Origin: Dehalococcoidia bacterium
GTDB lineage: Bacteria; Chloroflexota; Dehalococcoidia; Lucifugimonadales; CATOSD01
Reading direction: 5' to 3'
Length of the DNA: 64,000 nucleotides
NCBI GenBank assembly: GCA_965204815.1
Contig: OZ242014.1
Coordinates: 3,213,747-3,277,746 of the forward strand
Shown here in pieces: positions 23,166-60,003 of the stretch (its first letter is position 1; every line of letters begins with the position of its first letter). The notes beneath the pieces were generated by a model that saw only the letters and a list, made by a program, of their open reading frames with translations, did not search any database and was not told the origin of the DNA. The position numbers and the translations under genes are program-made.

Positions 23166-25604
23166 ATGAGATACGCAGAAGTCGCAGTCGACGCCCCCGC
23201 AGGCTTCGCTCGCACGTTCAGCTACTCCATACCGGAAGGACTCAGCGTGCGGCCGGGCCAGCTCGTCCGCGTGCCGTTCGGGGCGCAGCGGCTGCAGGGC
23301 ATGGTGTTCTCGCTCGAGGACACGCCCCAGGTGCCGCAGACCCGCGACATCCTGGCCGCCGCGAGCGACGAGCCTCTGCTGACGGGCGAGCAGCTCCGGC
23401 TCGCGACCTGGATCAGCGGCTACTACATGTGCCCGCTCCTGGACGCCGCCGCGCTGATGATGCCCCCCGGCCGGCGCGTGCGCTCGAGGGCCGTCCTGTC
23501 CCCAGGCGAGCACGCCGACGACGAAGGCCTGTCCCTGACTCCCCTGCAGCAGCGCGTGCTGGACTACGTGCGCAGGCGGGGAGATGTCGCCGAGGGACGC
23601 CTGGCCGCCGCGCTTGGCGAGTCGGCCCGCGGATCCGCCGCGGCCCTGGCCCGCCGGGGTGTGCTGGAGCGTCGCACCGAGGAACGCCGACCCACCACGC
23701 GGCCCCTGCGGCGCAAGCGGCTGCGGATGATCGACGACGGCGGACAGGGCCTGCGCCGGTGGCTCGACGAGACAGAACGCAATGAGAGGCAGGCCGCTCT
23801 CGCACGTCGGCTGATCGCCGGCAGCGCGCCTCTGCTGCTCAGAGAGGCGAACGAGCGGTACGGCAGCTACGCCGTCAACAGGCTGGTCGCTACGGGCTGG
23901 GTGGAGAAGGAAGATGCGACGTTCGAGCGCGACCCCCTGGCCGGGAGGAGCTTTCAGACCGTCACGCCGCCCGTGCTCACGCCGGAACAGGAGAAGGTGG
24001 CGAGGGAGATTCGCGCCGTACTGGCGGACGAATCCGCGTCTCCCAGGTCCTTCCTGCTCCAGGGCGTGACCGGCAGCGGCAAGACCGAGGTCTACCTCGA
24101 CGCCGTAGAGGAGTGCAGCAGGCTGGGCAAGCGGGCCATCGCGCTGGTGCCGGAAATCGCGCTCACCCACCAGACCATCGATCGCTTCTCGGCCAGGTTC
24201 CCGGGGCGCGTCGCGGTGCTCCACAGCGGCCTCACGCCCGGCGAGCGATTCGACCAGTGGTGGGGCATCAGGCGCGGCGACTACGACGTGGTGATCGGCA
24301 CGCGCAGCGCGCTGTTCGCGCCCCAGCCGGACCTGGGGCTGGTGGTTATCGACGAGGAGCACGACTGGAACTACAAGGAGGGCAACGTCAACCCCCGCTA
24401 CCACGCACGCGACGTGGCCATGAAGCTGTGCGAGCTGAGCGGCGCGGCGCTGGTGATGGGCAGCGCGACCCCGGACGTGGGCACCTACTACATGGGCCGG
24501 CGCGGTCCCATCGGCTTGCGGCATCTTCCCCACAGGGTCCGCTCCGGATCCGCCACGTCGCACACCGAGCGTGCGCCGCTCGCTCGCGTCGCGGTGGTGG
24601 ACATGAAGGAGGAGCTTAGGGCTGGCAACCGGGGCATGTTCAGCCGTGGACTTGCACGGGCCATCGAGCGCAACCTGGCGTCGGGCGAGCAGACCATCCT
24701 GTTTCTCAACCGGCGCGGCGCGGCGGCGTTCAGGCAGTGCCGCAGGTGCGGATTCAGCCTGCGCTGCCGGCGTTGCGACGTGTCGCTCGCCTACCACACC
24801 AACCTCGACAGGCTGCTGTGCCACCACTGCGGCTACCGGCGCAGGGCGCCCCAGAAGTGCCCGAGCTGCCTCAGCTTCCAGCTTGCCTACTACGGCTTCG
24901 GCGTCCAGAGCGTGGAAGAGGAGGTCGGCCGCCTGTTCCCGGGCACCCGCGTCGCGCGATGGGACAGCGACGCGGTGAGCGGCGCGCGCGCCCACGCGCG
25001 GGTCGCCGAGAGTTTCGGGTCGGGCGAGGCCGACGTGCTGGTGGGCACGCAGATGGTCACAAAGGGGCTCCACTTCCCGTCCGTGACGCTGGTGGGGGTG
25101 GTGTCCGCCGACGTCGGCCTGAACGTGCCGGACTTCCGGGCGGGCGAGCGTGCCTTCCAGTTGCTGTGCCAGGTGGCCGGGCGCGCCGGACGGGGGGAGA
25201 ACCCCGGCACGGTGATTGTGCAGACCTACCAGCCGGACAACTACGCGGTGTCCGCCGCCGCCGCGCAGGACTACCAGCGCTTCTACCGCCAGGAGATGGC
25301 GCACCGCTACGCGCAGGCCAACCCGCCCTACACCAAGCTCATCAGGCTGGTCTACTCGCACCTCAACGCGCAGACCGCCGAGGGCGCGGCCCGCAGGTTC
25401 GCGCGCGCGCTCAGGGAGCAGCGCGAGGCGTGGGGTCTATCGGACGTGGATCTGCTGGGGCCGACGCCCGCCTACCCCGCGCGGGTGCGGGCGCGCTACC
25501 GGTGGCAGATGCTGCTGCGCGGTCCGGAGCCGCGCCGTCTGCTGGACACGGTAGCCGTCCCCAACGGCTGGACGGTGGACGTGGATCCGGCAACGCTGGC
25601 GTGA
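23166..25604 (+). CDS. priA: primosomal protein N' (replication restart helicase)
   Basis: GVTGSGKTEVY, LVPEIALT, IDEEHD, zinc-binding CxxC pairs, GTQMVTKG, PDFRAGER, QVAGRAGR. Confidence 0.97.
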   Translation: MRYAEVAVDAPAGFARTFSYSIPEGLSVRPGQLVRVPFGAQRLQGMVFSLEDTPQVPQTRDILAAASDEPLLTGEQLRLATWISGYYMCPLLDAAALMMPPGRRVRSRAVLSPGEHADDEGLSLTPLQQRVLDYVRRRGDVAEGRLAAALGESARGSAAALARRGVLERRTEERRPTTRPLRRKRLRMIDDGGQGLRRWLDETERNERQAALARRLIAGSAPLLLREANERYGSYAVNRLVATGWVEKEDATFERDPLAGRSFQTVTPPVLTPEQEKVAREIRAVLADESASPRSFLLQGVTGSGKTEVYLDAVEECSRLGKRAIALVPEIALTHQTIDRFSARFPGRVAVLHSGLTPGERFDQWWGIRRGDYDVVIGTRSALFAPQPDLGLVVIDEEHDWNYKEGNVNPRYHARDVAMKLCELSGAALVMGSATPDVGTYYMGRRGPIGLRHLPHRVRSGSATSHTERAPLARVAVVDMKEELRAGNRGMFSRGLARAIERNLASGEQTILFLNRRGAAAFRQCRRCGFSLRCRRCDVSLAYHTNLDRLLCHHCGYRRRAPQKCPSCLSFQLAYYGFGVQSVEEEVGRLFPGTRVARWDSDAVSGARAHARVAESFGSGEADVLVGTQMVTKGLHFPSVTLVGVVSADVGLNVPDFRAGERAFQLLCQVAGRAGRGENPGTVIVQTYQPDNYAVSAAAAQDYQRFYRQEMAHRYAQANPPYTKLIRLVYSHLNAQTAEGAARRFARALREQREAWGLSDVDLLGPTPAYPARVRARYRWQMLLRGPEPRRLLDTVAVPNGWTVDVDPATLA
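25523..25604 (+). repeat. priA 3' end, direct repeat copy 1 (functional)
   Basis: 82 bp recurring at 31857-31938; its last 41 bp recur at 26229-26269. Confidence 0.95.
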
Positions 25605-25658
25605 GGGGCCGGCTCTGAACTGTTGCCACCCCGCCACTTCTATGGCGCGTAAACTCGC

Positions 25659-25669
25659 CATACGGTATG
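25659..25669. promoter_or_regulatory. palindrome CATACGGTATG, possible antitoxin operator
   Basis: Inverted repeat between TCGCCA and TATGAT just upstream of the AbrB-type gene. Confidence 0.4.
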
Positions 25670-25703
25670 ATATTTCTATGATGATATTCATACGAGGTAA
25701 GTC

Positions 25704-25919
25704 ATGCGCATATCCGAACGCGGACAAATCACCATCCCCAAGCGATTCAGAGACCGCTTCGGCATGAACAAGGACGTAGAGGTCGAAATCACGCCCACCG
25801 AACACGGCCTGCTCATCCAAAAGCGATCGGCGGCGCAGCATCCGGTCGAGAAGATTAGTGGAATCCTGGATGGGGCTGTGGACGTTGACCAGTACATCGA
25901 AGAGATTCGGGGAAGATGA
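25704..25919 (+). CDS. AbrB/MazE/SpoVT family antitoxin
   Basis: MRISERGQITIPKRFRDRFGM. Confidence 0.9.
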   Translation: MRISERGQITIPKRFRDRFGMNKDVEVEITPTEHGLLIQKRSAAQHPVEKISGILDGAVDVDQYIEEIRGR

Positions 25920-26107
25920 TCACGTCGGTTGATACCAATGTCCTGTTGGATGTCTTCGTCTCGACCGCACCGCACCACTCTCAATCGCAGAAATGGCTGA
26001 TAGACGCCTACGACAGAGGAGCCATACTTGTCTGCGACGTCGTATACGCGGAGCTTGTTCCGGCGTTTGGAGACCGCACGTCGCTGGACAACGCGCTAGC
26101 GCAGTGA
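25916..26107 (+). pseudogene. truncated PIN/VapC toxin
   Basis: MITSVDTNVLLD...VVYAEL then a stop at 63 aa; C-terminal half of the PIN domain absent; ATGA overlap with the antitoxin. Confidence 0.82.
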
Positions 26108-26156
26108 GATCGACCGAACGGCCTGCAATCGAAACATAGCGCCGCCACACACTCCG

Positions 26157-26228
26157 CGCCGCACGACCGCGGCTTCATGCTGGCGGATGTGGTGTTCGAC
26201 GTGGCCGCACGTTCAACGGCAAGAGCTT
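26157..26228 (+). repeat. displaced copy of an internal 5' fragment of the class IV aminotransferase gene
   Basis: Matches 32097-32169 with three substitutions and a 1-bp deletion. Confidence 0.92.
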
Positions 26229-26269
26229 ACGGCTGGACGGTGGACGTGCATCCGGCGACGCTGGCGTAG
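26229..26269 (+). repeat. priA 3' end, partial copy 2
   Basis: ACGGCTGGACGGTGGACGTGCATCCGGCGACGCTGGCGTAG. Confidence 0.92.
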
Positions 26270-26304
26270 AGCGGAGGATGACAGGCGGTGGGTGATTCGC
26301 TAAC

Positions 26305-28850
26305 ATGCCCACCATGAACGAGGCAACGGCGCGCATAAAGATCAATCGTCTGCTGGAAAAGGCGGGCTGGCGCTTCTTCCCGGAAGGAGACAGCCCCGCC
26401 AACGTCCAGCTCGAGGCGGGCGTCGCGCTCAAGCAGTCAGACCTCGACTCGCTCGGCGACGATTTCGAGAAGACCGGTAAAGGGTTCGTTGACTACCTTC
26501 TGCTGGATGAGAAGGGATTTCCCCTCGTCGTGCTGGAGGCCAAGTCCGAAGAGAAGCAGCCCCTCGCCGGCAAAGAGCAGGCCCGCAAGTACGCCCGCTC
26601 CCAGAACTGCCGCTTCATCATCCTCTCGAATGGCAACCTGCACTATTTCTGGGACCTGGAGCGGGCAATCCCAGCGTCATTACCGCTCTTCCAACGCCGC
26701 ACTCCGTAGCCGGTTACAGCAAGGCCCAGCCCAACCCAAATCGCCTCATAGACGAGCAGGTCCGGGACGACTACGTTGTCCTCACTCAGCGTCCCAACTA
26801 TGCCTCGACAGCGGCGTGGAAAAACGAGGCTGAGCGGGATGGCTTCGTCCGTGCCAACGGTCTCCGCTTTCTGCGTGGCTACCAGCTCCGGGCGATTCAC
26901 GCTCTGCAGCAGGCCGTCAAGGACGGCAGCGACCGCTTTCTGTTCGAGATGGCGACCGGCACGGGCAAGACACTCACCTCCGCGGCCGTCATCAAGCTGT
27001 TCCTGCGGTCCGGCAACGCCTCACGGGTACTGTTCCTCGTCGATCGCCTTGAGCTCGAAGAGCAAGCCCGGAAGGTGTTCACCGCCCTGCTCTCCGCCGA
27101 CTACCAGACCGTCGTCTACAAGGAGCGGCGTGACGACTGGCGTACCGCCGAGATAGTTGTCAGCACCGTCCAGTCTCTTCTCTTCAACAACAAATACCAG
27201 TCCCTGTTCTCGCCGACCGACTTCGATCTCGTGATTTCGGACGAGGCGCATCGCTCCATCAGCGGCAACTCCCGCGCGGTGTTCAACTACTTCGTTGGCT
27301 ACAAGCTCGGCCTCACCGCCACCCCGAAAGACTATCTCAGGGGCGTAGATAAGAAAGGCGCAAACGTCCACGATCCGCGCGAGGCCGAACGGCGGCTGCT
27401 GCTGGACACCTATCACACGTTCGGCTGCGAGAGCGGACAACCCACGTTCCGATATTCGTTAGTGGACGGCGTAAAGGACGGGTATCTCATCAATCCCACA
27501 GTGGTCGATGCCCGTACCGAAGTGACCACGCAGTTGCTCGCGGACGACGGCTTTATTGTTTCGGTCGCCGATGACACCGGTGAAGAGCATGAGGAGAGCT
27601 ACAAACAGCGCGAGTTCGAGAAACGGTTCTTCTCCGATGCCACCAACCAGGTCTTCTGCAAGACCTTCCTCGAGAACGCGCTGCGCGACCCCGTGAGTGC
27701 CGAGATAGGCAAGTCCATCATCTTCGCAGTGAGCCAGAACCACGCCGCCCGGCTGACGCAGACCCTCAACGAAATAGCCGACGTCATGTATCCTGACAAG
27801 TACCAGTCCGACTTCGCGGTGCAAGTCACGTCCCAGGTGGCGGACGCCCAGCAGTTCACCATCAACTTCGCCAACAACAACCTGATGGGCTCGCGCAACT
27901 TCCTCGATTCCTACCGCACCAGCAAGGCGCGCGTGTGCGTAACCGTCGGCATGATGACCACCGGCTACGACTGCACCGACATCCTCAATCTCGGTATGTT
28001 CCGGCCCATCTTCTCGCCCACCGACTTCGTCCAGATAAAGGGACGCGGCACTCGCACACACACCTTCACCGAGCAGATCGAGGGCGATTCGCTCGCCGAA
28101 GATGTGACTCAGCCCGAGAAGACCGCCTTCAAACTGTTCGACTTCTTCGGCAACTGCGAATTCTTCGAGACGGAGTTCGACTACGACGAGGAGATCAAGC
28201 TGCCGCGGCCCCAGCCCGGCAACGGCGAGCCAGGAGTGAACGGCGGAACCGGCCCGACTGTGTACGTTTCCTATGAGCACCTGGGCACTGACATCCTGGC
28301 CACAATTCAGGAAGAGGCCATAGGTCCCGAAGGGATGAAGATTGACAGGATGTTCTTTGACCGGTTCGCGGACACCGTCCGGGCCATCGAGACCGTCAGG
28401 AAGGCGGTTGAAGCGGGCAACTGGGACCTGGTGATCGATTACGTGAACCGCGAAGTGTTCGACAAACCGGAGGACTACTACACGCTGCCCAAGCTGCGAA
28501 AAGCCGTGTCAATAGACCGTCGCCTTACCTTGCGCGAGATTCTCGAAAAGGTCTTCAATTTAATCCCCGCCTTTAAGTCAAAGGATGAATTGCTGGAAGA
28601 GGAATTCGAGAAATTCGTGGTTCGACATACCCCCAGAAGGGCCAATTCCATCCCTGCCATCAAGACCTTCTTCAAGGCCTACGTCACCGACGGCTACGTT
28701 CGGGAGATCATCGACAAAAGGCAACTCGCCAGATTAGCCACCAACCCGTCATTCTCTATGTACGACTTCCGTGCCGTGCCACGGCGGTATCATAAACTCG
28801 TCCCCGAGTACATTAAGGACTACGTCTCGCTGAACCAGTTCGCCCCGTAA
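26305..28850 (+). pseudogene. hsdR: Type I restriction endonuclease subunit R, frameshifted
   Basis: N-terminal nuclease (VDYLL...LEAK), Walker A MATGTGKT, DEAHRS, QIKGRGTR. Adding one G to the GGG at 26663-26665 joins both ORFs into one frame (DLERGNPSVIT...). Could be a sequencing error. Confidence 0.85.
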
Positions 28851-28858
28851 GGGAAGTC

Positions 28859-31351
28859 ATGCTGGACACCGCCACCAAACAGCGCATCGACACCGCCCGC
28901 GACATCCTCGTCGGCAAGGTTCCCGATCCCAGGAGCCAGATCGAACAGATTACCATCGCCCTCATCTACAAGTTCATGGACGACATAGACTCCGAGAGCG
29001 AGGAGTTGGGCGGCAAGCGCGAGTTTTTTGCGGGACAGTTCGCCAAGTACCGCTGGGCAAAGCTGGTGGGGCCGGGCGTCGGTGGGAACGAGGCGCTTAA
29101 CCTGTACGCCGAATCCATAGCCCGCATGCCCGAAAACCCGGGCATTCCGGCCCTGTTCCGTGACATCTTCAACAACGCCTATCTACCCTATCGAGACCCT
29201 GAGACGCTGCGAGCCTTCCTCAAGGTCATCGACGAGTTCACCTACGACAATTCTGAGCGGTTAGGCGACGCCTACGAGTACCTGCTCTCGGTGCTTGGCG
29301 TGCAGGCCGACGCCGGACAGTTCCGCACTCCCCGCCACATCATCGACTTCATCGTTTCCATCGTGGATCCGAAGAAGGACGATTCGATTCTGGATCCCGC
29401 CTGCGGCACTTCGGGGTTTCTCATATCCGCCTACAAGCACATCCTGGCGGCCAACACCGACAGCGACGGCCAGAGCGGGTTGACGCCGGAAGAGCGGGCC
29501 CGGCTGGTCAACAACTTCAAGGGCTACGACATCTCCCCGGACTATGTGCGCCTTTCGCTAGTGAACATGTACCTGCATGAGTTCCTTGAGCCGCACATAT
29601 ACGAATACGACACGCTCACCAGCGAAGACAGGTGGAACGAGTACGCCGACGTGATTCTGGCCAACCCGCCCTTCATGAATCCGAAGGGCGGCATAAGACC
29701 CCACAACCGCTTCTCGGTCACGTCCAGGCGTAGTGAAGTGCTGTTCGTGGACTACATAGCTGAGCATCTGACCGCCAACGGACGGGCTGGCGTGATCGTG
29801 CCGGAGGGCATCATCTTCCAAAGCCAGAACGCTCACAAACAACTTCGCAAGATGCTGGTGGAAGATTACCTCGTGGCAGTGGTGTCGTTACCTGCTGGGG
29901 TCTTCAACCCCTACTCCGGCGTCAAGACGTCCATCCTGATACTCGACCGCGCTCTCGCCAAGCGGACCGACTCCATTGCGTTCTTCAAGGTGGAGAACGA
30001 TGGCTTCGACCTCGGTTCCCAGCGCCGGCCAATCGACGACAACGACTTGCCAAGAGTGCAAGCCGAGCTTAGTGAGTACCTATCCCGCCTGCGAGCGGAC
30101 GAACCTCAGACCGCCACCCCTGCCCCTGCATCCAGCGTAGCCGAGGCGAAGTCAAACTACTCGACGAACGAGTTGATATTGGGGGTGGTGGTCGACAAGT
30201 CAAAGATATCTAAGGAGGGCGAGTACATTCTGAGTCGGGAGCGTTACGGCGAAACTTCCAGAAGGACATCTCTCTACCAAATGTTGCCGTTTGCTGAAGT
30301 GTGTTCTCTAGAATATGGCGCAAGCTTGCCGAAGAAGAATCGCGTACATGGTCCTTATCCTGTCATGGGCTCCAATGGCGTGAGTGGCTACCACAACAAC
30401 TTCATAGTCGAGGGGCCCGCCATCATCGTAGGGCGAAAGGGATCTGCTGGGGAAGTGACCTTTGTAAACGATAACTGCTTCCCCATAGACACGACCTACT
30501 ATGTAAAGCAGTCAGATCCCGAAAAAACAGATATACGGTTTCTCTATCATCTGTTGAAGGACCTTGGCTTGGCCGACATTCGAAATGGTGCAGCAGTCCC
30601 GGGCCTAAACAGAAATGATGTTTATGCAAGATATCAATTGCCAATCCCACCCATCGAAGTTCAGCGAGAAATCGTGGCAGAGATTGAAGGCTGCCAGAGA
30701 GTCATTGACGGTGCGCGCGCCGTGGTGGAGAATTACCGCCCCCATCTCTCTGTTGATCCAGAATGGCCGACAGTGAAGATAGGTGAAGTCTGTGACCTAA
30801 TCAACGGCCGTGCGTTCAAACCACAAGATTGGGAACCTGCTGATAGTGGGGGTCTTCCAATTGTCAGAATACAAAATCTCAACTCTCCCGGTAGCGATAT
30901 GAACTACTACACTGGGAAAGTTGACGAGCGCCACCTTATCAAAGACGGGCATCTCTTGTTTTCTTGGTCTGGCTCCCGAGGCACGTCTTTTGGAGCGCAC
31001 ATTTGGGGTGGTGGAGAAGCGGTACTAAATCAGCACATCTTTAAGGTCAATTTTGACCAGAACAAGACAGCCAAAATGTACCTATATCTCGCATTGAATC
31101 AGGTGGTTAGTGAGGTTGAGCAAAATCTTCACGGAGGAGTTGGGCTAGTCCACATTACGAAGGGTAATCTGGAGAAGATTCAAATTCCCTTGCCTGACCT
31201 GAGCCAACAACAGGCTATAGTTGCCGAAATGGAGGCCGAACAGGCTGCCGTGGACGCCAACCGCGAGCTTATCGAGCGATTCGAAAAGAAGATTGATGCC
31301 GCCATAGCAAGGGTGTGGGAAAGTAAACCAACCGCAGAGGCGAGTGGGTAG
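28859..31351 (+). CDS. Type I RM N6-adenine methyltransferase fused to a specificity subunit (HsdM-HsdS)
   Basis: GQFRTPRHII, DPACGTSGFL, NPPF, followed by two AT-richer TRDs ending PIPPIEVQREIV and IPLPDLSQQQAIV. Confidence 0.92.
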   Translation: MLDTATKQRIDTARDILVGKVPDPRSQIEQITIALIYKFMDDIDSESEELGGKREFFAGQFAKYRWAKLVGPGVGGNEALNLYAESIARMPENPGIPALFRDIFNNAYLPYRDPETLRAFLKVIDEFTYDNSERLGDAYEYLLSVLGVQADAGQFRTPRHIIDFIVSIVDPKKDDSILDPACGTSGFLISAYKHILAANTDSDGQSGLTPEERARLVNNFKGYDISPDYVRLSLVNMYLHEFLEPHIYEYDTLTSEDRWNEYADVILANPPFMNPKGGIRPHNRFSVTSRRSEVLFVDYIAEHLTANGRAGVIVPEGIIFQSQNAHKQLRKMLVEDYLVAVVSLPAGVFNPYSGVKTSILILDRALAKRTDSIAFFKVENDGFDLGSQRRPIDDNDLPRVQAELSEYLSRLRADEPQTATPAPASSVAEAKSNYSTNELILGVVVDKSKISKEGEYILSRERYGETSRRTSLYQMLPFAEVCSLEYGASLPKKNRVHGPYPVMGSNGVSGYHNNFIVEGPAIIVGRKGSAGEVTFVNDNCFPIDTTYYVKQSDPEKTDIRFLYHLLKDLGLADIRNGAAVPGLNRNDVYARYQLPIPPIEVQREIVAEIEGCQRVIDGARAVVENYRPHLSVDPEWPTVKIGEVCDLINGRAFKPQDWEPADSGGLPIVRIQNLNSPGSDMNYYTGKVDERHLIKDGHLLFSWSGSRGTSFGAHIWGGGEAVLNQHIFKVNFDQNKTAKMYLYLALNQVVSEVEQNLHGGVGLVHITKGNLEKIQIPLPDLSQQQAIVAEMEAEQAAVDANRELIERFEKKIDAAIARVWESKPTAEASG

Positions 31352-31388
31352 GCCTTTGCCGCGTCTCAGATTGGTCTCCTTTCTTCGC

Positions 31389-31488
31389 TCGACAAAACGC
31401 CCCGTGTGATGTAGCATCCTCTCTCACTCCCCCTGTCGCTTCTGGTGGCAGGGTAGCAAGGCCACCTTCGAGGTGGCCTTTGCATTTT
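31389..31488 (+). ncRNA. candidate small RNA with its own promoter and terminator
   Basis: TCGACA-17 nt-TAGCAT, then a CU-rich leader, hairpin CCCTGTCGC/GTGGCAGGG, and a terminator hairpin. Confidence 0.45.
31458..31488 (+). terminator. intrinsic terminator
   Basis: Perfect stem AAGGCCACCT/AGGTGGCCTT followed by TGCATTTT. Confidence 0.65.
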
Positions 31489-31593
31489 GCGAGACTATGA
31501 CTGCCAACATCCATTCGTACTCCGCAGAGGCGTCCCCTTGTGGTTGTCCTGTGGCGAGGCGTCGCCGCGGCCGATTCCGACCCCTACACGCCC

Positions 31594-31623
31594 TTGACCT
31601 CCTCCGCACATCCGTGCTAGCAT
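31594..31623 (+). promoter_or_regulatory. sigma70-type promoter with palindromic spacer (element copy B)
   Basis: TTGACC-18 nt-TAGCAT containing GCACATCCGTGC (31606-31617), identical to copy A. Confidence 0.6.
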
Positions 31624-31856
31624 ACCTTTGACAAGGGACTGACCCACCGACCTGGCGCCCACGGATGCGGCGTTCGGCGCCCCCTGCCGGCCTGTCCCAT
31701 TTTCACCCGATGCCGTAACCTCCATACCTAAATGCGCCTCATTTGGGGCTATCAATCGTCCTAACCGCCAACACTCCCAGCTATGAGACGCAACGGAATG
31801 CAACGATTTGCATCAGTCTTCGGCAAATTTGGCGCCCGCAGGCGCTCTTTGGCCTC

Positions 31857-31938
31857 TCCGGAGCCGCGCCGTCTGCTGGACACGGTTGCCGTGCCCAACG
31901 GCTGGACGGTGGACGTGGACCCGGCGACGCTGGCGTAG
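31857..31938 (+). repeat. priA 3' end, direct repeat copy 3 (displaced)
   Basis: Encodes the identical PEPRRLLDTVAVPNGWTVDVDPATLA*; differs by four synonymous codon changes and TGA>TAG. Confidence 0.95.
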
Positions 31939-32035
31939 GAGAAGCGGCGGCGTATTCCCCCGCTTTGCGCACAACGCTATACTATCCCCAAACACAGCAG
32001 ACACGCCCGGTGAAGCGCGGGCGAAAGGGGGAGGC

Positions 32036-32941
32036 ATGGCAGACTACACGGCCTATTTCAACGGGGATTGGGTGCCGTTCGACGACGTGAAGGTGTCGCC
32101 GCACGACCGCGGATTCATGCTGGCGGACGTGGTGTTCGACGTGGCCCGCACCTTCAACGGCAAGAGCTTTCGCATGAAGCAGCACGTCGACCGGCTGTAC
32201 CGCTCGCTCAAGTTCGTTCGCATCGACCCGGGGCTCTCGCACGAGGAGATGATGTCCATCAGCGAGGAGTCCATCGAGCGCAACATGGACAGGCTGCCGG
32301 AGGCGGGCGACTTCACCGTTCGCCAGTGGGTCACGCGCGGGCCGGGCCGCTGGGCGCACACCTCGGGGCCGCCCTCCGTGTGCGTGGAGGTGCAGCCCAT
32401 CTCGTTCGACCGGTTCTCCGGCCTGTACGCGGACGGCGCGCACGGCGTCATAGCCCGGACCCGCAGCTTTCCCGCCGAGACCCTCGATCCCAAGGTCAAG
32501 CACCACAGCCGCATGAACTTCAATCTCGCCGAGCTGGAGGCCGCCGACGTCGACGAGTCCGCCTGGCCGATCCTGCTGGACGTGGACGGCAACCTGACCG
32601 AGGGCATCGGCTACAACGTGTTCCTGGTCACCGACGGCGTGCTGCGGCTGCCCGGCGACAGCACCCTGCTGCAAGGCGTGTCGCGCGGCATGGTTGTGGA
32701 CCTGGCGCGGCAGCTCGACATCCCCGTCGCCGAGGAGGAGATGCAGCCCTACGACCTGTACACCGCCGACGAGGTGTTCTTCTCCGGCACCAGCCCCTGC
32801 GTGCTGCCCGTCACGCGGGTGGACCGGCGGGAGGTCGGCGACGGCAAGCCGGGTCCGGTCACCGAGCAACTGCTCGCGGCGTGGAGCGAGACCGTGGGGC
32901 TGGACATAGTGGACCAGGCGCTGCGCTTCAGCAGAGGATGA
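32036..32941 (+). CDS. PLP-dependent aminotransferase class IV (IlvE/DAAT-like)
   Basis: HDRGF, HVDRLYRS, PKVKHHSR, TEGIGYNVF, LLQGVSR, ADEVF. Confidence 0.92.
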   Translation: MADYTAYFNGDWVPFDDVKVSPHDRGFMLADVVFDVARTFNGKSFRMKQHVDRLYRSLKFVRIDPGLSHEEMMSISEESIERNMDRLPEAGDFTVRQWVTRGPGRWAHTSGPPSVCVEVQPISFDRFSGLYADGAHGVIARTRSFPAETLDPKVKHHSRMNFNLAELEAADVDESAWPILLDVDGNLTEGIGYNVFLVTDGVLRLPGDSTLLQGVSRGMVVDLARQLDIPVAEEEMQPYDLYTADEVFFSGTSPCVLPVTRVDRREVGDGKPGPVTEQLLAAWSETVGLDIVDQALRFSRG

Positions 32942-56722: not shown

Positions 56723-56830
56723 CTACCCACGCTTGCGCGCCACCGCGCGGCGGGCGGCTTGGGCTACGTCGGCGGCGGTGAGGTGATACTTGGCCATGAG
56801 GGCGTCGGGGGCGCCGGCCGGGGTGTAGCC
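56723..56830 (-). repeat. displaced diverged copy of the transketolase 3' end
   Basis: Encodes GYTPAGAPDALMAKYHLTAADVAQAARRAVARKRG* versus GYAESGAPDALMAKYHLTAADVAQAARRAVARKAV* at 59062-59169. Confidence 0.95.
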
Positions 56831-57299
56831 ACTGAGAAGGTTCAGTCTCGGAATGAGAAGAGCGGCAAGAGCTCATCCCGTATGTAGTTCACGTCGTCGC
56901 GGTCTATTCCCACGTACAGCCCCTCATCGGTTGAGGATACCCAATCGAAAAAGCCGGCGGCGTCTTCAACATCTCTGAGAGTAAGCTTCAACGAATTGGT
57001 CCTGCCGTACTCATCACGCTGCTCGACAGTTATCCTGCCTTGATCCAACAGGTAATCCAAGAACTCTTCCACATCCACTGTGTCAATCTTAACGCGGGTG
57101 ACGTTGCCGCTCCCATCAGTCACGACGGTCTCCAGACTGCCATCGCTAATGACAACATAATTGGCCTCACCCGGAGACCCTGCGTAACCAGTGCCAGACT
57201 CTAGTAAGGACTCATCAAAATTTCTAAGTATGCGACGATCTAAATGTCCTTTGTTTATACCGAACTGTTTGTCCAGATAATTTTCACCTTTGGACTCTA

Positions 57300-58107
57300 G
57301 GTAGTGTTGACATTTCATCTTAGCCATATGAGAGCGCCGACGAAGTGGAGAAATCCAAGGTATCTATCCGCCAGCTTGTCGAATCGGGAGAAGATGTGGC
57401 GGTAGTGCTTGATCTTGCCTATGAAGCACTCAACGAGATGCCGCTCCCGGTACAGATACTCATCGTATGAGGGTGGCTCCCTGCGGTTCGAGCGAGGCGG
57501 GATCACCGGGGTAGCCTCGTTGCCGATGATCGACTCACGAAACTGACGGGAGTCATATGCGCGGTCTGCAATCACATACTCGCTCTCCATACCCCACACG
57601 AGCGCCTCGGCCTGAGTGACATCGTGCTCCTGTCCTGCGGTCAGCGTATACCTCAAGGGATTGCCGAGGCCATCGACAGCCACGTGGACCTTCGTAGTGA
57701 ACCCACCTCGGCTTCGACCGAGGGCTTGAGATGCTTGACCACCCTTTTTTTGGGTGCGCCCGCAGCCGAATGATGGGCCCGGACTATGGTACTGTCGATT
57801 ATCAGGTGCTCCATGTCAGGATCATCGGCGAAATGCTGATGCATTCGCTCCCATACTCCGTTCTCACACCATCGGCCGAACCGCTTGTAGACGCTGTTCC
57901 ATTTCCCATACTCGGAAGGCAGTAGCCTCCATGACGCGCCAGACCTGCTCATCCACATGATAGCCTCGATGAACCGCTCACAGTCGGCCTCCTGTCCGAC
58001 ATACACGTCTGGCTGGCTACGAAGGAACTCCAACACCCGTGACCATTGCTCTGGAGATAGGTTAACTGTTGACATATACCCAGTATAATGCAAATGTCAA
58101 CACTACC
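57300..58107 (-). mobile_element. IS5-family insertion sequence, complete
   Basis: Perfect 16-bp terminal IRs GGTAGTGTTGACATTT; TA duplication at 57298-57299 and 58108-58109. Confidence 0.93.
57315..58075 (-). CDS. IS5 transposase, two ORFs probably joined by a -1 frameshift
   Basis: orfA WRLLPSEYGKWNSVYKRF, IDSTIVRAH; A7 slippery run at about 57745-57751; orfB ADRAYDS, YRERHLVECF. Confidence 0.88.
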
Positions 58108-59061
58108 TAATAGTTTATAAATTGCAACAGACACCTTATCACCCGAAACCGCAATTGGATCTCCACTAACAACGCTCCTCTTCTGTGCAGAGGTTAGAAC
58201 GCCTTCCTTGTGCAAATAATCTAGAAGAACACCTGCGTTCCTAAAGCTAACATAAACGAGACCAGCTCCGTTATCATAACCAAAAGAGGCGTAAGCATTA
58301 TTAGAACTTGGTTTAATAACAACTTCTTCGCTCACTCGAGTTGGGGCAGCAGCAGGGACAGGAACTTTGGTAGGTGTGGCAATCGCTTCAGCAACAACTG
58401 GCTCTGAATCTTCAGTAAACCCGACCAGGTATTTCACGTCTTCTTTTTCCAGTCCGAAGCGCTCTTTCAAATCGTCATAGCCCTGGCTTTGGACCAACTC
58501 GAACATATTGTTGGCTAGTTCGTCGATGGTTAGCTGCAGAACCTGTTCTTGTTCGTATCTTTCCAGTTCTTTCTGGTCAATCGCTCCTGAGGCAGCCAGA
58601 TATTCTACAAAGCTCTGGGCGTCCGTTAATTCGATCACTTTCCGCCCTTTGTCAGAATCGATGTAGAAGTCGCTTCCCCTGAGAACCACGCTGTTGTCTT
58701 CAACAGCCAAGGGCTGTGAAGTCGGAGCGGGCGGAGGAGCGGTTGCGGTCGGAGAAATGGGGGTTTCTCCAGCAACAGCACCAGGGGGAGAGGCGGTGGG
58801 AGCTTCAACTTGCTGAACAACGGGCGCGGGTGCCGGAGGCGGCTCGGACCTGCCGGTCAAGGCGAACACTGCCAAAGCAGCGACGGCGACTACGGCAATC
58901 GCTCCGGCGATCTTGGTTGATCGGGGAGCTTCTCTGACTCTTTCAACAAGGCCTGACAAGACGAACTCCAAGCCCTCCGCTCATTCCCAACTGCCATACG
59001 GTGTAACCCATGTCCCCGGTCTATACACCCATCGAGGGAGAAGGGATGGTGGTGCTGCCCC

Positions 59062-60003
59062 CTACACCGCCTTCCGCGCCACCGCTCGCCGGGCGGCTTG
59101 GGCTACGTCGGCGGCGGTGAGGTGGTACTTGGCCATGAGGGCGTCGGGGGCGCCGGACTCGGCGTAGCCGTGGAGGGCGACCGTCTCCTGGGGCGTGGGA
59201 GCCTCGCGGGCGAGGGTCTGGGCGACCATGCCGCCCAGCCCGCCGACGACGTAGTGCTCCTCCGCCGTGACGATGGCGCCGGTCTCGCGCGCGGCGGCGA
59301 TGACGGCCGCCTCGTCCAGCGGCTTGATCGTGGCCGTGTTGAGCACGCGGCAGGAAATGCCCTCGGCGGCGAGCGTCTCGGCGGCCTCGAGCGCGACGCT
59401 CACCATGATGCCGCACGCCACTATCGCCACGTCGTCGCCCTCGCGCATCGTCTCGGCCTCGCCGAGGCGGAAGTCGTAGTCCTCGGCGTGCACCACCGGG
59501 GTGGCAGAGCGTGACAGCCGGACGTAGAAGGGGCCCTGGGTGGCGACGGCGCTGCGGACTGCGCGGACGGTCTCGGGGCCGTCCGCAGGGACGACGACGG
59601 TGAACTCGGGCAGCGCGCACATGAGCGCGAGGTCCTCGATGCTGTGGGCGGACACGCCGTCCTCGCCGGTGATGATGCCGCTGTGGGTGGCGATGACCTT
59701 GACGTTGAGGCGCGGCTGGGACACTCCGACGCGGAGCTGGTCGTGGGGCCGGCTGGTGGAGAAGACGGCGAACGTGCTGACGACGGGTATCTTGCCGGAG
59801 GAGGCCATGCCCGCGGCCACGCTGACGATGTTCTGCTCGGCGGGGCCGAAATCGAAGAAGCGGTCGGGATACTTTTCGCCGAACAGGAAGGCGAAGGTGG
59901 AGACGTTGAGGTCGCCGCCGAGTACGACGAGGTCGGGGAACTCGGCTCCCAGCTCTACGAGCGTCTGCCCGGCTACTTCGCGTGTGACGGCGGTCTCGGC
60001 CAT
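59062..60003 (-). CDS. transketolase, C-terminal (pyrimidine-binding) subunit
   Basis: FGPAEQN, TFAVF, GEDGVSAH, TIKPLD, TAEEH. Confidence 0.94.
   Translation of the reverse strand: MAETAVTREVAGQTLVELGAEFPDLVVLGGDLNVSTFAFLFGEKYPDRFFDFGPAEQNIVSVAAGMASSGKIPVVSTFAVFSTSRPHDQLRVGVSQPRLNVKVIATHSGIITGEDGVSAHSIEDLALMCALPEFTVVVPADGPETVRAVRSAVATQGPFYVRLSRSATPVVHAEDYDFRLGEAETMREGDDVAIVACGIMVSVALEAAETLAAEGISCRVLNTATIKPLDEAAVIAAARETGAIVTAEEHYVVGGLGGMVAQTLAREAPTPQETVALHGYAESGAPDALMAKYHLTAADVAQAARRAVARKAV

Follow-up and report, generated by a model that had tools for sequence, protein, structure and literature searches.

Allele-like copies of core-gene ends flank integrase-free defence islets at priA and other sites of a Dehalococcoidia genome

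Restriction-modification (RM) systems of all types are described as showing 'insertion with long target duplication' (Furuta, Abe and Kobayashi 2010, NAR 38:2428, PMC2853133). The criteria stated there are a repeat of more than 30 bp that is single-copy in a related genome, an insert of less than 20 kb and an absence of mobility genes. The repeat identities given include 44/46, the Discussion calls the mechanism unknown, and Nobusato et al. 2000 are cited for the long target duplication of RM systems as reference 37 of that paper. A model of one homologous and one illegitimate event, or one-sided model, is set out in two other papers, of which PMC5361080 applies it to displaced effector-immunity and Rhs modules, and PMC2884548 to dimorphic variable segments. 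Here, we analyse a 64-kb window of a Dehalococcoidia genome (genome positions 3213747-3277746), in which the last 82 bp of the core gene priA recur as a diverged copy beyond an integrase-free island carrying a Type I RM system and a toxin-antitoxin unit, and we show how this locus, and others of the same design in the genome, compare with these systems.

The genome studied (G000) is a single contig of 3.31 Mb with 64.7% G+C, and plain coordinates are those of the window. The island and its core-gene flanks are delimited by the following features:

23166..25604, plus strand: priA, 812 aa, an intact core gene (Pfam PriA_3primeBD, DEAD, ResIII, PriA_C and Zn_ribbon_PriA)
25523..25604, plus strand: T1, the priA-attached tail copy, which is the functional 3' end, with stop TGA
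26157..26231, plus strand: scar, an inner piece of an allele of the downstream aminotransferase gene (codons about 21-45), 93% identical to 32097-32172
26229..26269, plus strand: T2, a 41-bp partial priA tail copy with stop TAG and one D>H change, fused directly to the aminotransferase fragment
31857..31938, plus strand: T3, the displaced tail copy, with stop TAG and the native priA-aminotransferase spacer next to it
32036..32941, plus strand: class IV aminotransferase gene, the right core flank, 301 aa (Pfam Aminotran_4, 5e-40)

T1 and T3 are identical at 76 of 80 positions over 25523-25602 and 31857-31936 (repeat search and BLAST, E 3e-30), or at 76 of 82 with the stop codon included, and BLAST found no further full copy of this repeat in the 3.31-Mb genome. 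From T1 to T3 they differ in five codons (GTA>GTT, GTC>GTG, GAT>GAC, GCA>GCG and TGA>TAG) and encode the same peptide, PEPRRLLDTVAVPNGWTVDVDPATLA, up to the stop; all six changed bases are silent (P 5e-4, with an expected silent fraction of 0.28). This confirms an earlier note on this DNA, which had reported an 82-bp priA tail recurring downstream with the same peptide and silent changes only, down to the five codons exactly as listed there.

The partial copy T2 sits 0.6 kb past T1, with 95% identity to the distal copy T3 and 90% to the priA copy T1, and is immediately preceded by the 75-bp internal fragment of the aminotransferase gene (26157-26231; source 32097-32172). Compared with the resident gene, this fragment has three substitutions, all of them silent, a 1-nt deletion and one change at the junction. 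The island therefore reads, in order, T1, vapB and the truncated vapC, the aminotransferase fragment joined to T2, the frameshifted hsdR and hsdMS, a non-coding stretch, T3, the native spacer and the aminotransferase gene, with at least three junctions of unrelated sequences (26156/26157, 26228/26229 and 31856/31857). Given that the third tail copy is fused to an aminotransferase fragment, the island consists of two cassettes parted by a scar, one with vapB and a truncated vapC, the other with a Type I RM system whose hsdR is frameshifted. The earlier note had taken it for a single cassette; the bracketing tails hold, but the T2/aminotransferase scar had been overlooked.

The locus was compared in eight congeners (G001-G008) using the DNA upstream of the aminotransferase orthologues, which were found in 8/8 with 91-99% identity:

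G004: empty site, with priA, one tail, a spacer of about 98 bp and the aminotransferase gene
G001 and G003: other cargo of ~2.4 kb (two open reading frames (ORFs) without a Pfam match), the non-coding stretch and a second tail copy
G008: behind the priA tail come the final bases of hsdMS, an NYN gene, a portion of the non-coding stretch, a tail copy of 45-55 nt and a vapB unit
G005, G007 and G002: an insert of 0.6-0.8 kb that includes the non-coding stretch, and one tail
G006: priA and the aminotransferase gene 780 kb apart and in opposite orientation, with an IS66-family transposase adjoining each (L044, L144)

T3 and its spacer are colinear with the empty site of G004. The displaced priA tail differs in length between insertions, with 82 nt in G000 (T3), about 80-82 nt in G001, about 35-52 nt in G003, 45-55 nt in G008 and 41 nt in T2 of G000. 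G008 carries the same two cassettes as G000 in reversed order, and its tail and vapB unit are homologous to those of G000. The attached priA tail of G008 also has an extra G (GGTGGGACG; L046:17277-17317), by which the open frame extends to 839 aa. The split in G006 is probably due to an inversion that was mediated by an insertion sequence (IS) and has one of its breakpoints in this hot spot. The scanned cargo ORFs of the eight congeners at this locus yielded no integrase domain. The earlier note had proposed that relatives be compared for empty sites and alternative cargo, and both came to light, in G004 and in G001 and G003, respectively; the larger integrase-bearing element in relatives that it had named as evidence against its own reading was not found among the cargo ORFs scanned at the priA locus of the eight congeners.

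The design is not confined to priA. Genome self-BLAST was filtered for low-copy pairs of 38-300 nt, at least 85% identical and 0.4-60 kb apart, and yielded 33 direct pairs; within 10 kb there were 31 direct versus 0 inverted pairs, and the 8 inverted pairs seen before the copy-number filter all came from multi-copy families. A high-G+C repeat surrounds a low-G+C gap in 15 of the 31 direct pairs. Fifteen sites, labelled A-O with K for priA and L for transketolase, were examined. Eight sites (B, C, F, H, J, K, L and M) have the 3' end of an intact gene in the repeat, as do E and N less clearly; at A, D and O it is a 5' end, and site G is without a clear gene frame. The self-alignment suggested in the earlier note revealed many sites with diverged gene-end duplicates (at least 12 candidates), and the duplicated 5' ends show that the design is not confined to gene tails. 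Cargo across the sites comprises PIN, NYN, Mrr, Uma2, DUF2335, a PD40 protein, a trypsin-like protease, RM genes and unknowns, with no integrase among the cargo of the examined sites. Site I (genome 2761247/2761902) was rejected as an islet, being an internal repeat of an hsdS gene. That gene (genome 2761188-2762615; L011:1689-3116) contains a 58-nt direct repeat, 655 nt apart, that corresponds to its two target-recognition halves.

Empty sites with exactly one repeat copy were found for all six sites that were searched and resolved, namely K (priA) in G004; J in G006, G003 and G008; L (transketolase) in G003; F in G008, G005, G002, G007 and G004; H in G001; and A, at the 5' end of a DNA methylase gene, in G001. 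At site H, the repeat is 82 nt long in G000, and G003 has its own 163-nt duplication there. Site A (genome 286226-288226, L001) is the clearest case of the design at a 5' end: the first ~110 nt of a DNA methylase gene of 780+ aa occur in three copies, separated by a DUF2335 islet and a PIN islet, and G001 has only one of the first two copies.

Site L lies in the same window as priA:

56723..56830, minus strand: displaced 3'-end copy of the transketolase C-terminal subunit gene, colinear, together with its left flank, with the empty site of G003
56831..59061, no strand: low-G+C islet, 2.2 kb with 52.7% G+C, containing an 814-bp IS
about 57296-58111: the 814-bp IS in the islet, with a two-frame IS5/IS4-type transposase (DUF4096 and DDE_Tnp_1)
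59062..60003, minus strand: transketolase C-terminal subunit gene (Pfam Transket_pyr and Transketolase_C), whose last 108 nt (59062-59169) are the attached copy

The two copies (56723-56830 and 59062-59169) share 89% identity over 108 nt. Another 14 copies of the IS, each 100% identical, occur in G000 (13 are full length), and many contigs of G001 end inside it. The recurrence at transketolase claimed in the earlier note is therefore real, and extends to other sites, but here the islet does hold an IS transposase.

The repeat copies look like functional alleles from different lineages. Taken together, 11 repeat pairs have 85 changed bases, of which 47 are silent where a share of about 27% would be expected (P 3.5e-8), a total that leaves out the A pair R1/R3, whose register is off by one base, and the K pair T1/T2, which overlaps K. 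The silent changes amount to 6/6 at K, 4/4 at J, 5/6 at H, 5/7 at O, 4/6 at B, 3/4 at F and 4/7 at D. That the priA tails evolved as alleles of a coding sequence, as first proposed in the earlier note, is supported by their silent-only differences. Within its 3' 53 nt, T1 has GTA/GTC/GCA in common with the attached tails of G001 and G003. The GTG/GCG codons of T3 are also those of the single tail of G004, and its GCG is found again in the displaced tail of G001. At three sites, K, J and L, the empty site of congeners is colinear with the displaced copy together with its outer flank, and congeners that carry an insert match the attached copy together with its inner flank.

The 6.25 kb of DNA between T1 and T3 have 57.2% G+C compared with 64.7% for the genome, and contain:

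25704..25919, plus strand: vapB-like antitoxin gene, 71 aa (Pfam MazE_antitoxin, 6e-6)
25916..26107, plus strand: truncated PIN (vapC) gene, 63 aa, covering only positions 3-43 of 120 of the Pfam PIN profile
26305..28850, plus strand: hsdR with one frameshift near 26660 (HSDR_N in 26305-26709; ResIII/SWI2_SNF2 in 26949-28850)
28859..31351, plus strand: fused hsdM-hsdS, 830 aa (N6_Mtase, 2.5e-49, and two Methylase_S stretches)
31592..31856, plus strand (genome 3245338-3245602): non-coding repeat copy, a member of a dispersed family detected with nhmmer

All HsdR, HsdM and HsdS domains of a Type I RM system were found, with M and S fused in one ORF and two target-recognition domains in HsdS, and the VapBC pair is incomplete, with a truncated toxin PIN ORF beside the antitoxin. 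A recombinase or transposase domain was found in 0 of the 8 island ORFs scanned, a scan that, in 31352-31856, covered ORFs of at least 100 aa. The contents given in the earlier note (vapBC, Type I RM and non-coding elements, integrase-free) hold, except that vapC is truncated and hsdR frameshifted. The single frame change in hsdR lies near GAGCGGGCAATCCC (window 26640-26680), and a contig of the metagenome run X4 carries the identical sequence; it could be a fixed pseudogene or a variable tract.

Relatives of the fused HsdM-HsdS protein at 52-75% identity occur in metagenome-assembled genomes of many phyla (loci L064-L143), among them Latescibacterota, Dehalococcoidia, Caldilineaceae, Binatia and Poribacteria; sponge or similar hosts are suggested by the records of these genomes, and this RM type seems to be widely exchanged. 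We fetched these 80 loci and scanned the 70 of at least 15 kb for direct repeats across the M-S gene. Any direct repeat was seen in 9 of the 70 loci and only 2 had one within 6 kb, by which we reject the idea that the duplication travels with this RM family. Considering that the RM relatives are almost never flanked by repeats, the scars would reflect how the host lineage acquires DNA rather than a property of the cargo.

The non-coding repeat that adjoins T3 belongs to a family with 55 near-full copies in G000 (nhmmer), of about 215-350 nt each, such as those at genome 2048442-2048677(-), 335037-335267(-) and 437310-437546(-). The copies start with a conserved promoter-like TTGA(C)-N17-TGCTAnnnT and 'ACATCCGTGCTA', and end with CCCAGCTA(C/G)GA followed by ATGnAAC repeats. 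For 43 of the 55 copies, the next downstream gene is co-oriented, mostly 50-250 nt away. The copy at the priA locus is kept in 7 of the 9 genomes of the genus, and all 8 congeners have many copies of the family. Rfam gave no match in 25000-32500 at E up to 1, so the non-coding stretch belongs to no known RNA family, and the 7 orthologous copies share only a weak consensus fold (of 31 pairs, 6 show compensatory changes and 14 show breaks). The family is possibly a mobile promoter or leader element. As an agent of the duplications it was rejected, given that the island copy is the only one of the 55 that abuts a displaced gene end; three other copies have a member of a low-copy repeat within 250 nt on their upstream side. 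The right-hand non-coding element and the distal tail predate the RM cargo, because both accompany other cargo in G001, and in G003 the element occurs with only a tail remnant of ~35-52 bp. A separate dispersed REP-like (repetitive extragenic palindromic) repeat of ~40 nt (e.g. L009:5262-5302) has dozens of 95-100% identical copies in G000 and occurs in all congeners.

Recombinases are scarce in this genome as a whole, with two PF00589 Phage_integrase matches (314 and 329 aa, at 2.75 and 2.91 Mb) and one PF00239 Resolvase match (565 aa, at 0.58 Mb), all three far from the window at 3.21-3.28 Mb. No match to Ku was found in the genome. From the anatomy of the island, the lack of recombinases, the allelic copies, the variable breakpoints, the empty sites and the recurrence across the genome, we infer a recombination pathway, and with it an entry of DNA into the cell, in which strain-to-strain recombination would be anchored in the core gene and a second, illegitimate junction would fall inside the gene end of the recipient; we put the probability of this reading at roughly 0.55. 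Host recombination, which the earlier note had offered beside a trans-acting enzyme for this integrase-free island, is the most economical agent and is likely. The priA-aminotransferase stretch would be a variable hot spot at which related lineages swap defence and toxin-antitoxin cassettes without a dedicated recombinase. DNA from a diverged lineage would pair with the flanking core gene and cross over by ordinary homologous recombination, and the junction of its non-homologous end would be an illegitimate one, a few dozen bases into the gene terminus of the recipient. Such a process would be homology-facilitated illegitimate recombination, with an outcome of the kind termed 'insertion with long target duplication'. 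The core gene would stay intact with one allele of the terminus, and the terminus of the other lineage would be stranded as a partial copy beyond the cargo.

Repeated events of this kind would stack cassettes between scars, giving T1, vapB with truncated vapC, the aminotransferase fragment with T2, the RM system, the repeat element and T3. The junction of the aminotransferase fragment and T2 would be the right end of a second event or, mirrored, its left end, and the gap between the truncated vapC and the aminotransferase fragment would be a later deletion. Later on, the direct repeats would recombine with each other, leading to gene conversion and possibly to a deletion that restores an empty site. 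The structure agrees with a one-sided product in that the priA and aminotransferase flanks are conserved across the genus and the sequences joined at 26228/26229, 26156/26157 and 31856/31857 are unrelated. The anchor is more likely the whole flanking core gene, with the 82-bp tail a remnant where the illegitimate junction landed; the short tail, taken for a homology arm in the earlier note, is probably a scar. The donor side is not distinguishable from the recipient side.

Several observations weigh against this reading. No silent excess is seen singly at L (4/12), M (2/6), A (2/9, in an uncertain frame) and E (8/18), and the search at site M gave no simple empty site. The allele assignment of T1 versus T3 depends on 2-3 diagnostic sites. 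Moreover, T1 and T3 are identical over their first 29 nt, including a G000-specific ACG where all others have ACC, and since both copies share this codon, gene conversion between them is indicated, which points to a blurred history of the two tails. Microhomology is minimal, about 0-2 nt, at 26228/26229 and 31856/31857, with patchy similarity beside some of the junctions, and a single ComEC match is the sole hint of competence seen in the genome. Sites at 3' ends predominate (8-10 of about 13), as they do for integrases. Homology-facilitated illegitimate recombination is reported to result in insertion with deletion, and a duplication, as proposed here, would extend that outcome. The one-sided process is described as rare in the passages concerned of PMC5361080 and PMC2884548, and several independent events at one locus would therefore require a hot spot or strong selection.

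A bolder version of the proposal is that capture by way of core-gene anchors and without a recombinase is, in this sponge- and coral-associated genus, the chief means of gaining, stacking, reordering and losing defence and toxin-antitoxin cassettes, with the diverged terminus copies then acting as portable recombination sites, so that each hot spot would behave like an integron without an integrase. The opposite cassette order in G000 and G008, bounded in both by priA-tail copies, the gene conversion between T1 and T3 and the empty site of G004, which could be a precise loss, bear on this idea, which we regard as tentative and more doubtful than not.

Among the alternatives, decayed or trans-mobilized site-specific integrative elements would have the repeats as attL and attR, the integrase lost or encoded elsewhere, and a replacement tail supplied by the element. 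The geometry expected of them is present, with direct repeats bounding the island, an intact, restored target gene, an element-side tail and a displaced native tail; the attached copy resembles the incoming allele, the sites are biased towards 3' ends, and tandem arrays at one site are known for such elements. Yet an integrase is absent both from the island and from the scanned cargo ORFs of the locus in the eight congeners, and the three recombinase matches of the genome face at least 12 distinct sites. Crossover points differ between insertions at the same site, gene 5' ends are duplicated too, cargo goes down to 0.6-0.9 kb, and the junction of the aminotransferase fragment with T2 is not of the att type. 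We consider this explanation unlikely.

A reading built on the short homology arm of the earlier note has a circular cassette entering by a single Campbell-type crossover in the tail, which would duplicate the tail, with an illegitimate junction closing the circle. The same final structure would result, the aminotransferase fragment and T2 can be read as the junction of a circle or of a tandem duplication, and the identical first 29 nt of T1 and T3 are a possible place for the crossover. However, an arm of 41-117 bp with 5-10% divergence would be a poor substrate next to kilobases of core gene (PMC2884548 discusses the threshold), and the boundaries at gene termini on either side are left unexplained, which makes this route improbable.

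Strict target duplication would derive both copies from the recipient, for instance by repair of widely staggered breaks, perhaps caused by RM or nuclease cargo, followed by divergence. The priA island conforms to the description of Furuta et al. 2010, with R and M homologues inside a 6.25-kb insert, an 82-bp repeat, a single copy in G004 and no mobility genes found among 8 ORFs; nucleases are frequent among the cargo genes, and the repeats in Table 2 of that paper (PMC2853133) are likewise not all identical. On the other hand, a non-coding copy should change at all codon positions, whereas 15 of 16 changes at K, J and H are silent, and the congener alleles matched by T1 are not those matched by T3, which would point to import of one of the two copies, albeit at few diagnostic sites and with gene conversion evident. 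The aminotransferase fragment cannot arise in this way, and the relatives of this RM system elsewhere are seldom flanked by repeats (2/70 within 6 kb). Such an origin therefore seems rather improbable.

Finally, the assembly was checked against Logan contigs of four runs, two of them from one study (X4, which holds 0.94 of the sampled words and may be the source sample, and X5) and two from two other studies (X1, a sponge metagenome, and X2, a coral metagenome). Contigs of X4 span 24500-26954 and 29915-32169 with 0 differences each, and X5 agrees. In a 5770-nt contig of X2, ~4.46 kb of other sequence separate 26098-26269 (the aminotransferase fragment and T2, with 9 differences) from 31918-32600, and a contig of X1 covers 25029-26097. 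No excision circles or deletion variants appeared among the listed contig joints of the four runs, in which contigs only were searched. An artefact that placed alternative strain haplotypes in tandem, the strain-chimeric assembly feared in the earlier note, could be suspected from the metagenome-style single-contig assembly with an estimated 3.3% contamination and from the many variant contigs that reveal strain variants in the runs, but it is effectively refuted by short independent contigs of X4 and X5 that bridge every junction with 0 differences, by the same scars in X1 and X2 and by tail duplicates at the priA locus in three further assemblies of the genus.

The earlier note had seen here a possibly undescribed route, which is not borne out, as the locus matches the long target duplication of PMC2853133 and the published one-sided model. 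Less usual here are the number of sites per genome, the non-RM cargo, the use of 5' ends and the allelic copies. A limited literature search gave no report of this design in such a genome, which does not establish its absence, and further cases in the supplement of PMC2853133 may bear on novelty. Considering that the mechanism of long target duplication of RM systems is left open in PMC2853133, this genome offers many natural replicates: there are at least 12 candidate sites, and for 6 of these an empty site occurs in congeners. With copies distinguishable as alleles, varying breakpoints and no recombinase nearby, the model of one homologous and one illegitimate event becomes testable by population genomics. 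Such a process would help to explain the turnover of defence islets in uncultured symbionts with very few integrases. Annotators should read short diverged gene-end copies next to islets as scars and not as attachment sites.

In the orphan arrays of type VI secretion effector-immunity, Rhs and contact-dependent inhibition modules, as covered in the relevant part of Kirchberger et al. 2017 (PMC5361080), new modules behind a conserved gene push older ones downstream, as they would here; one homologous and one illegitimate event take place there without an integrase, and the arrays then spread by homologous recombination. There, the conserved part belongs to the toxin gene, whereas here defence or toxin-antitoxin genes form the cargo and unrelated housekeeping genes, among them priA, transketolase and a permease, serve as anchors. 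As in the long target duplication of RM systems, Type I systems included, R and M genes lie between direct repeats of more than 30 bp without an integrase or transposase, and the repeats are not always identical. Unlike in those cases, the copies here behave like alleles of different lineages, the cargo includes non-RM genes, 5' ends are used, many sites occur per genome, and relatives of this RM system elsewhere are mostly free of repeats.

Homology-facilitated illegitimate recombination reportedly goes back to de Vries and Wackernagel in 2002, Prudhomme et al. in 2002 and Meier and Wackernagel in 2003. Like the proposed process, it combines a single anchor by homology in conserved DNA with a single illegitimate junction and brings in foreign DNA without a recombinase, but is experimental and known from competent species, whereas the process here is inferred from scars, and a junction inside the anchor region would yield a duplication rather than a deletion. 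Site-specific islands that restore the 3' end of their target (tRNA, tmRNA and protein genes) likewise leave the gene intact with a replacement end, displace the native end and form tandem arrays; here, there is no integrase, crossover points vary, 5' ends are used and the cargo can be very small. Integron cassette arrays, too, stack small promoter-less cassettes at one site in an order that varies, as between G000 and G008, whereas the arrays described here are without intI, attI and attC, and their separators are fragments of the neighbouring core genes.

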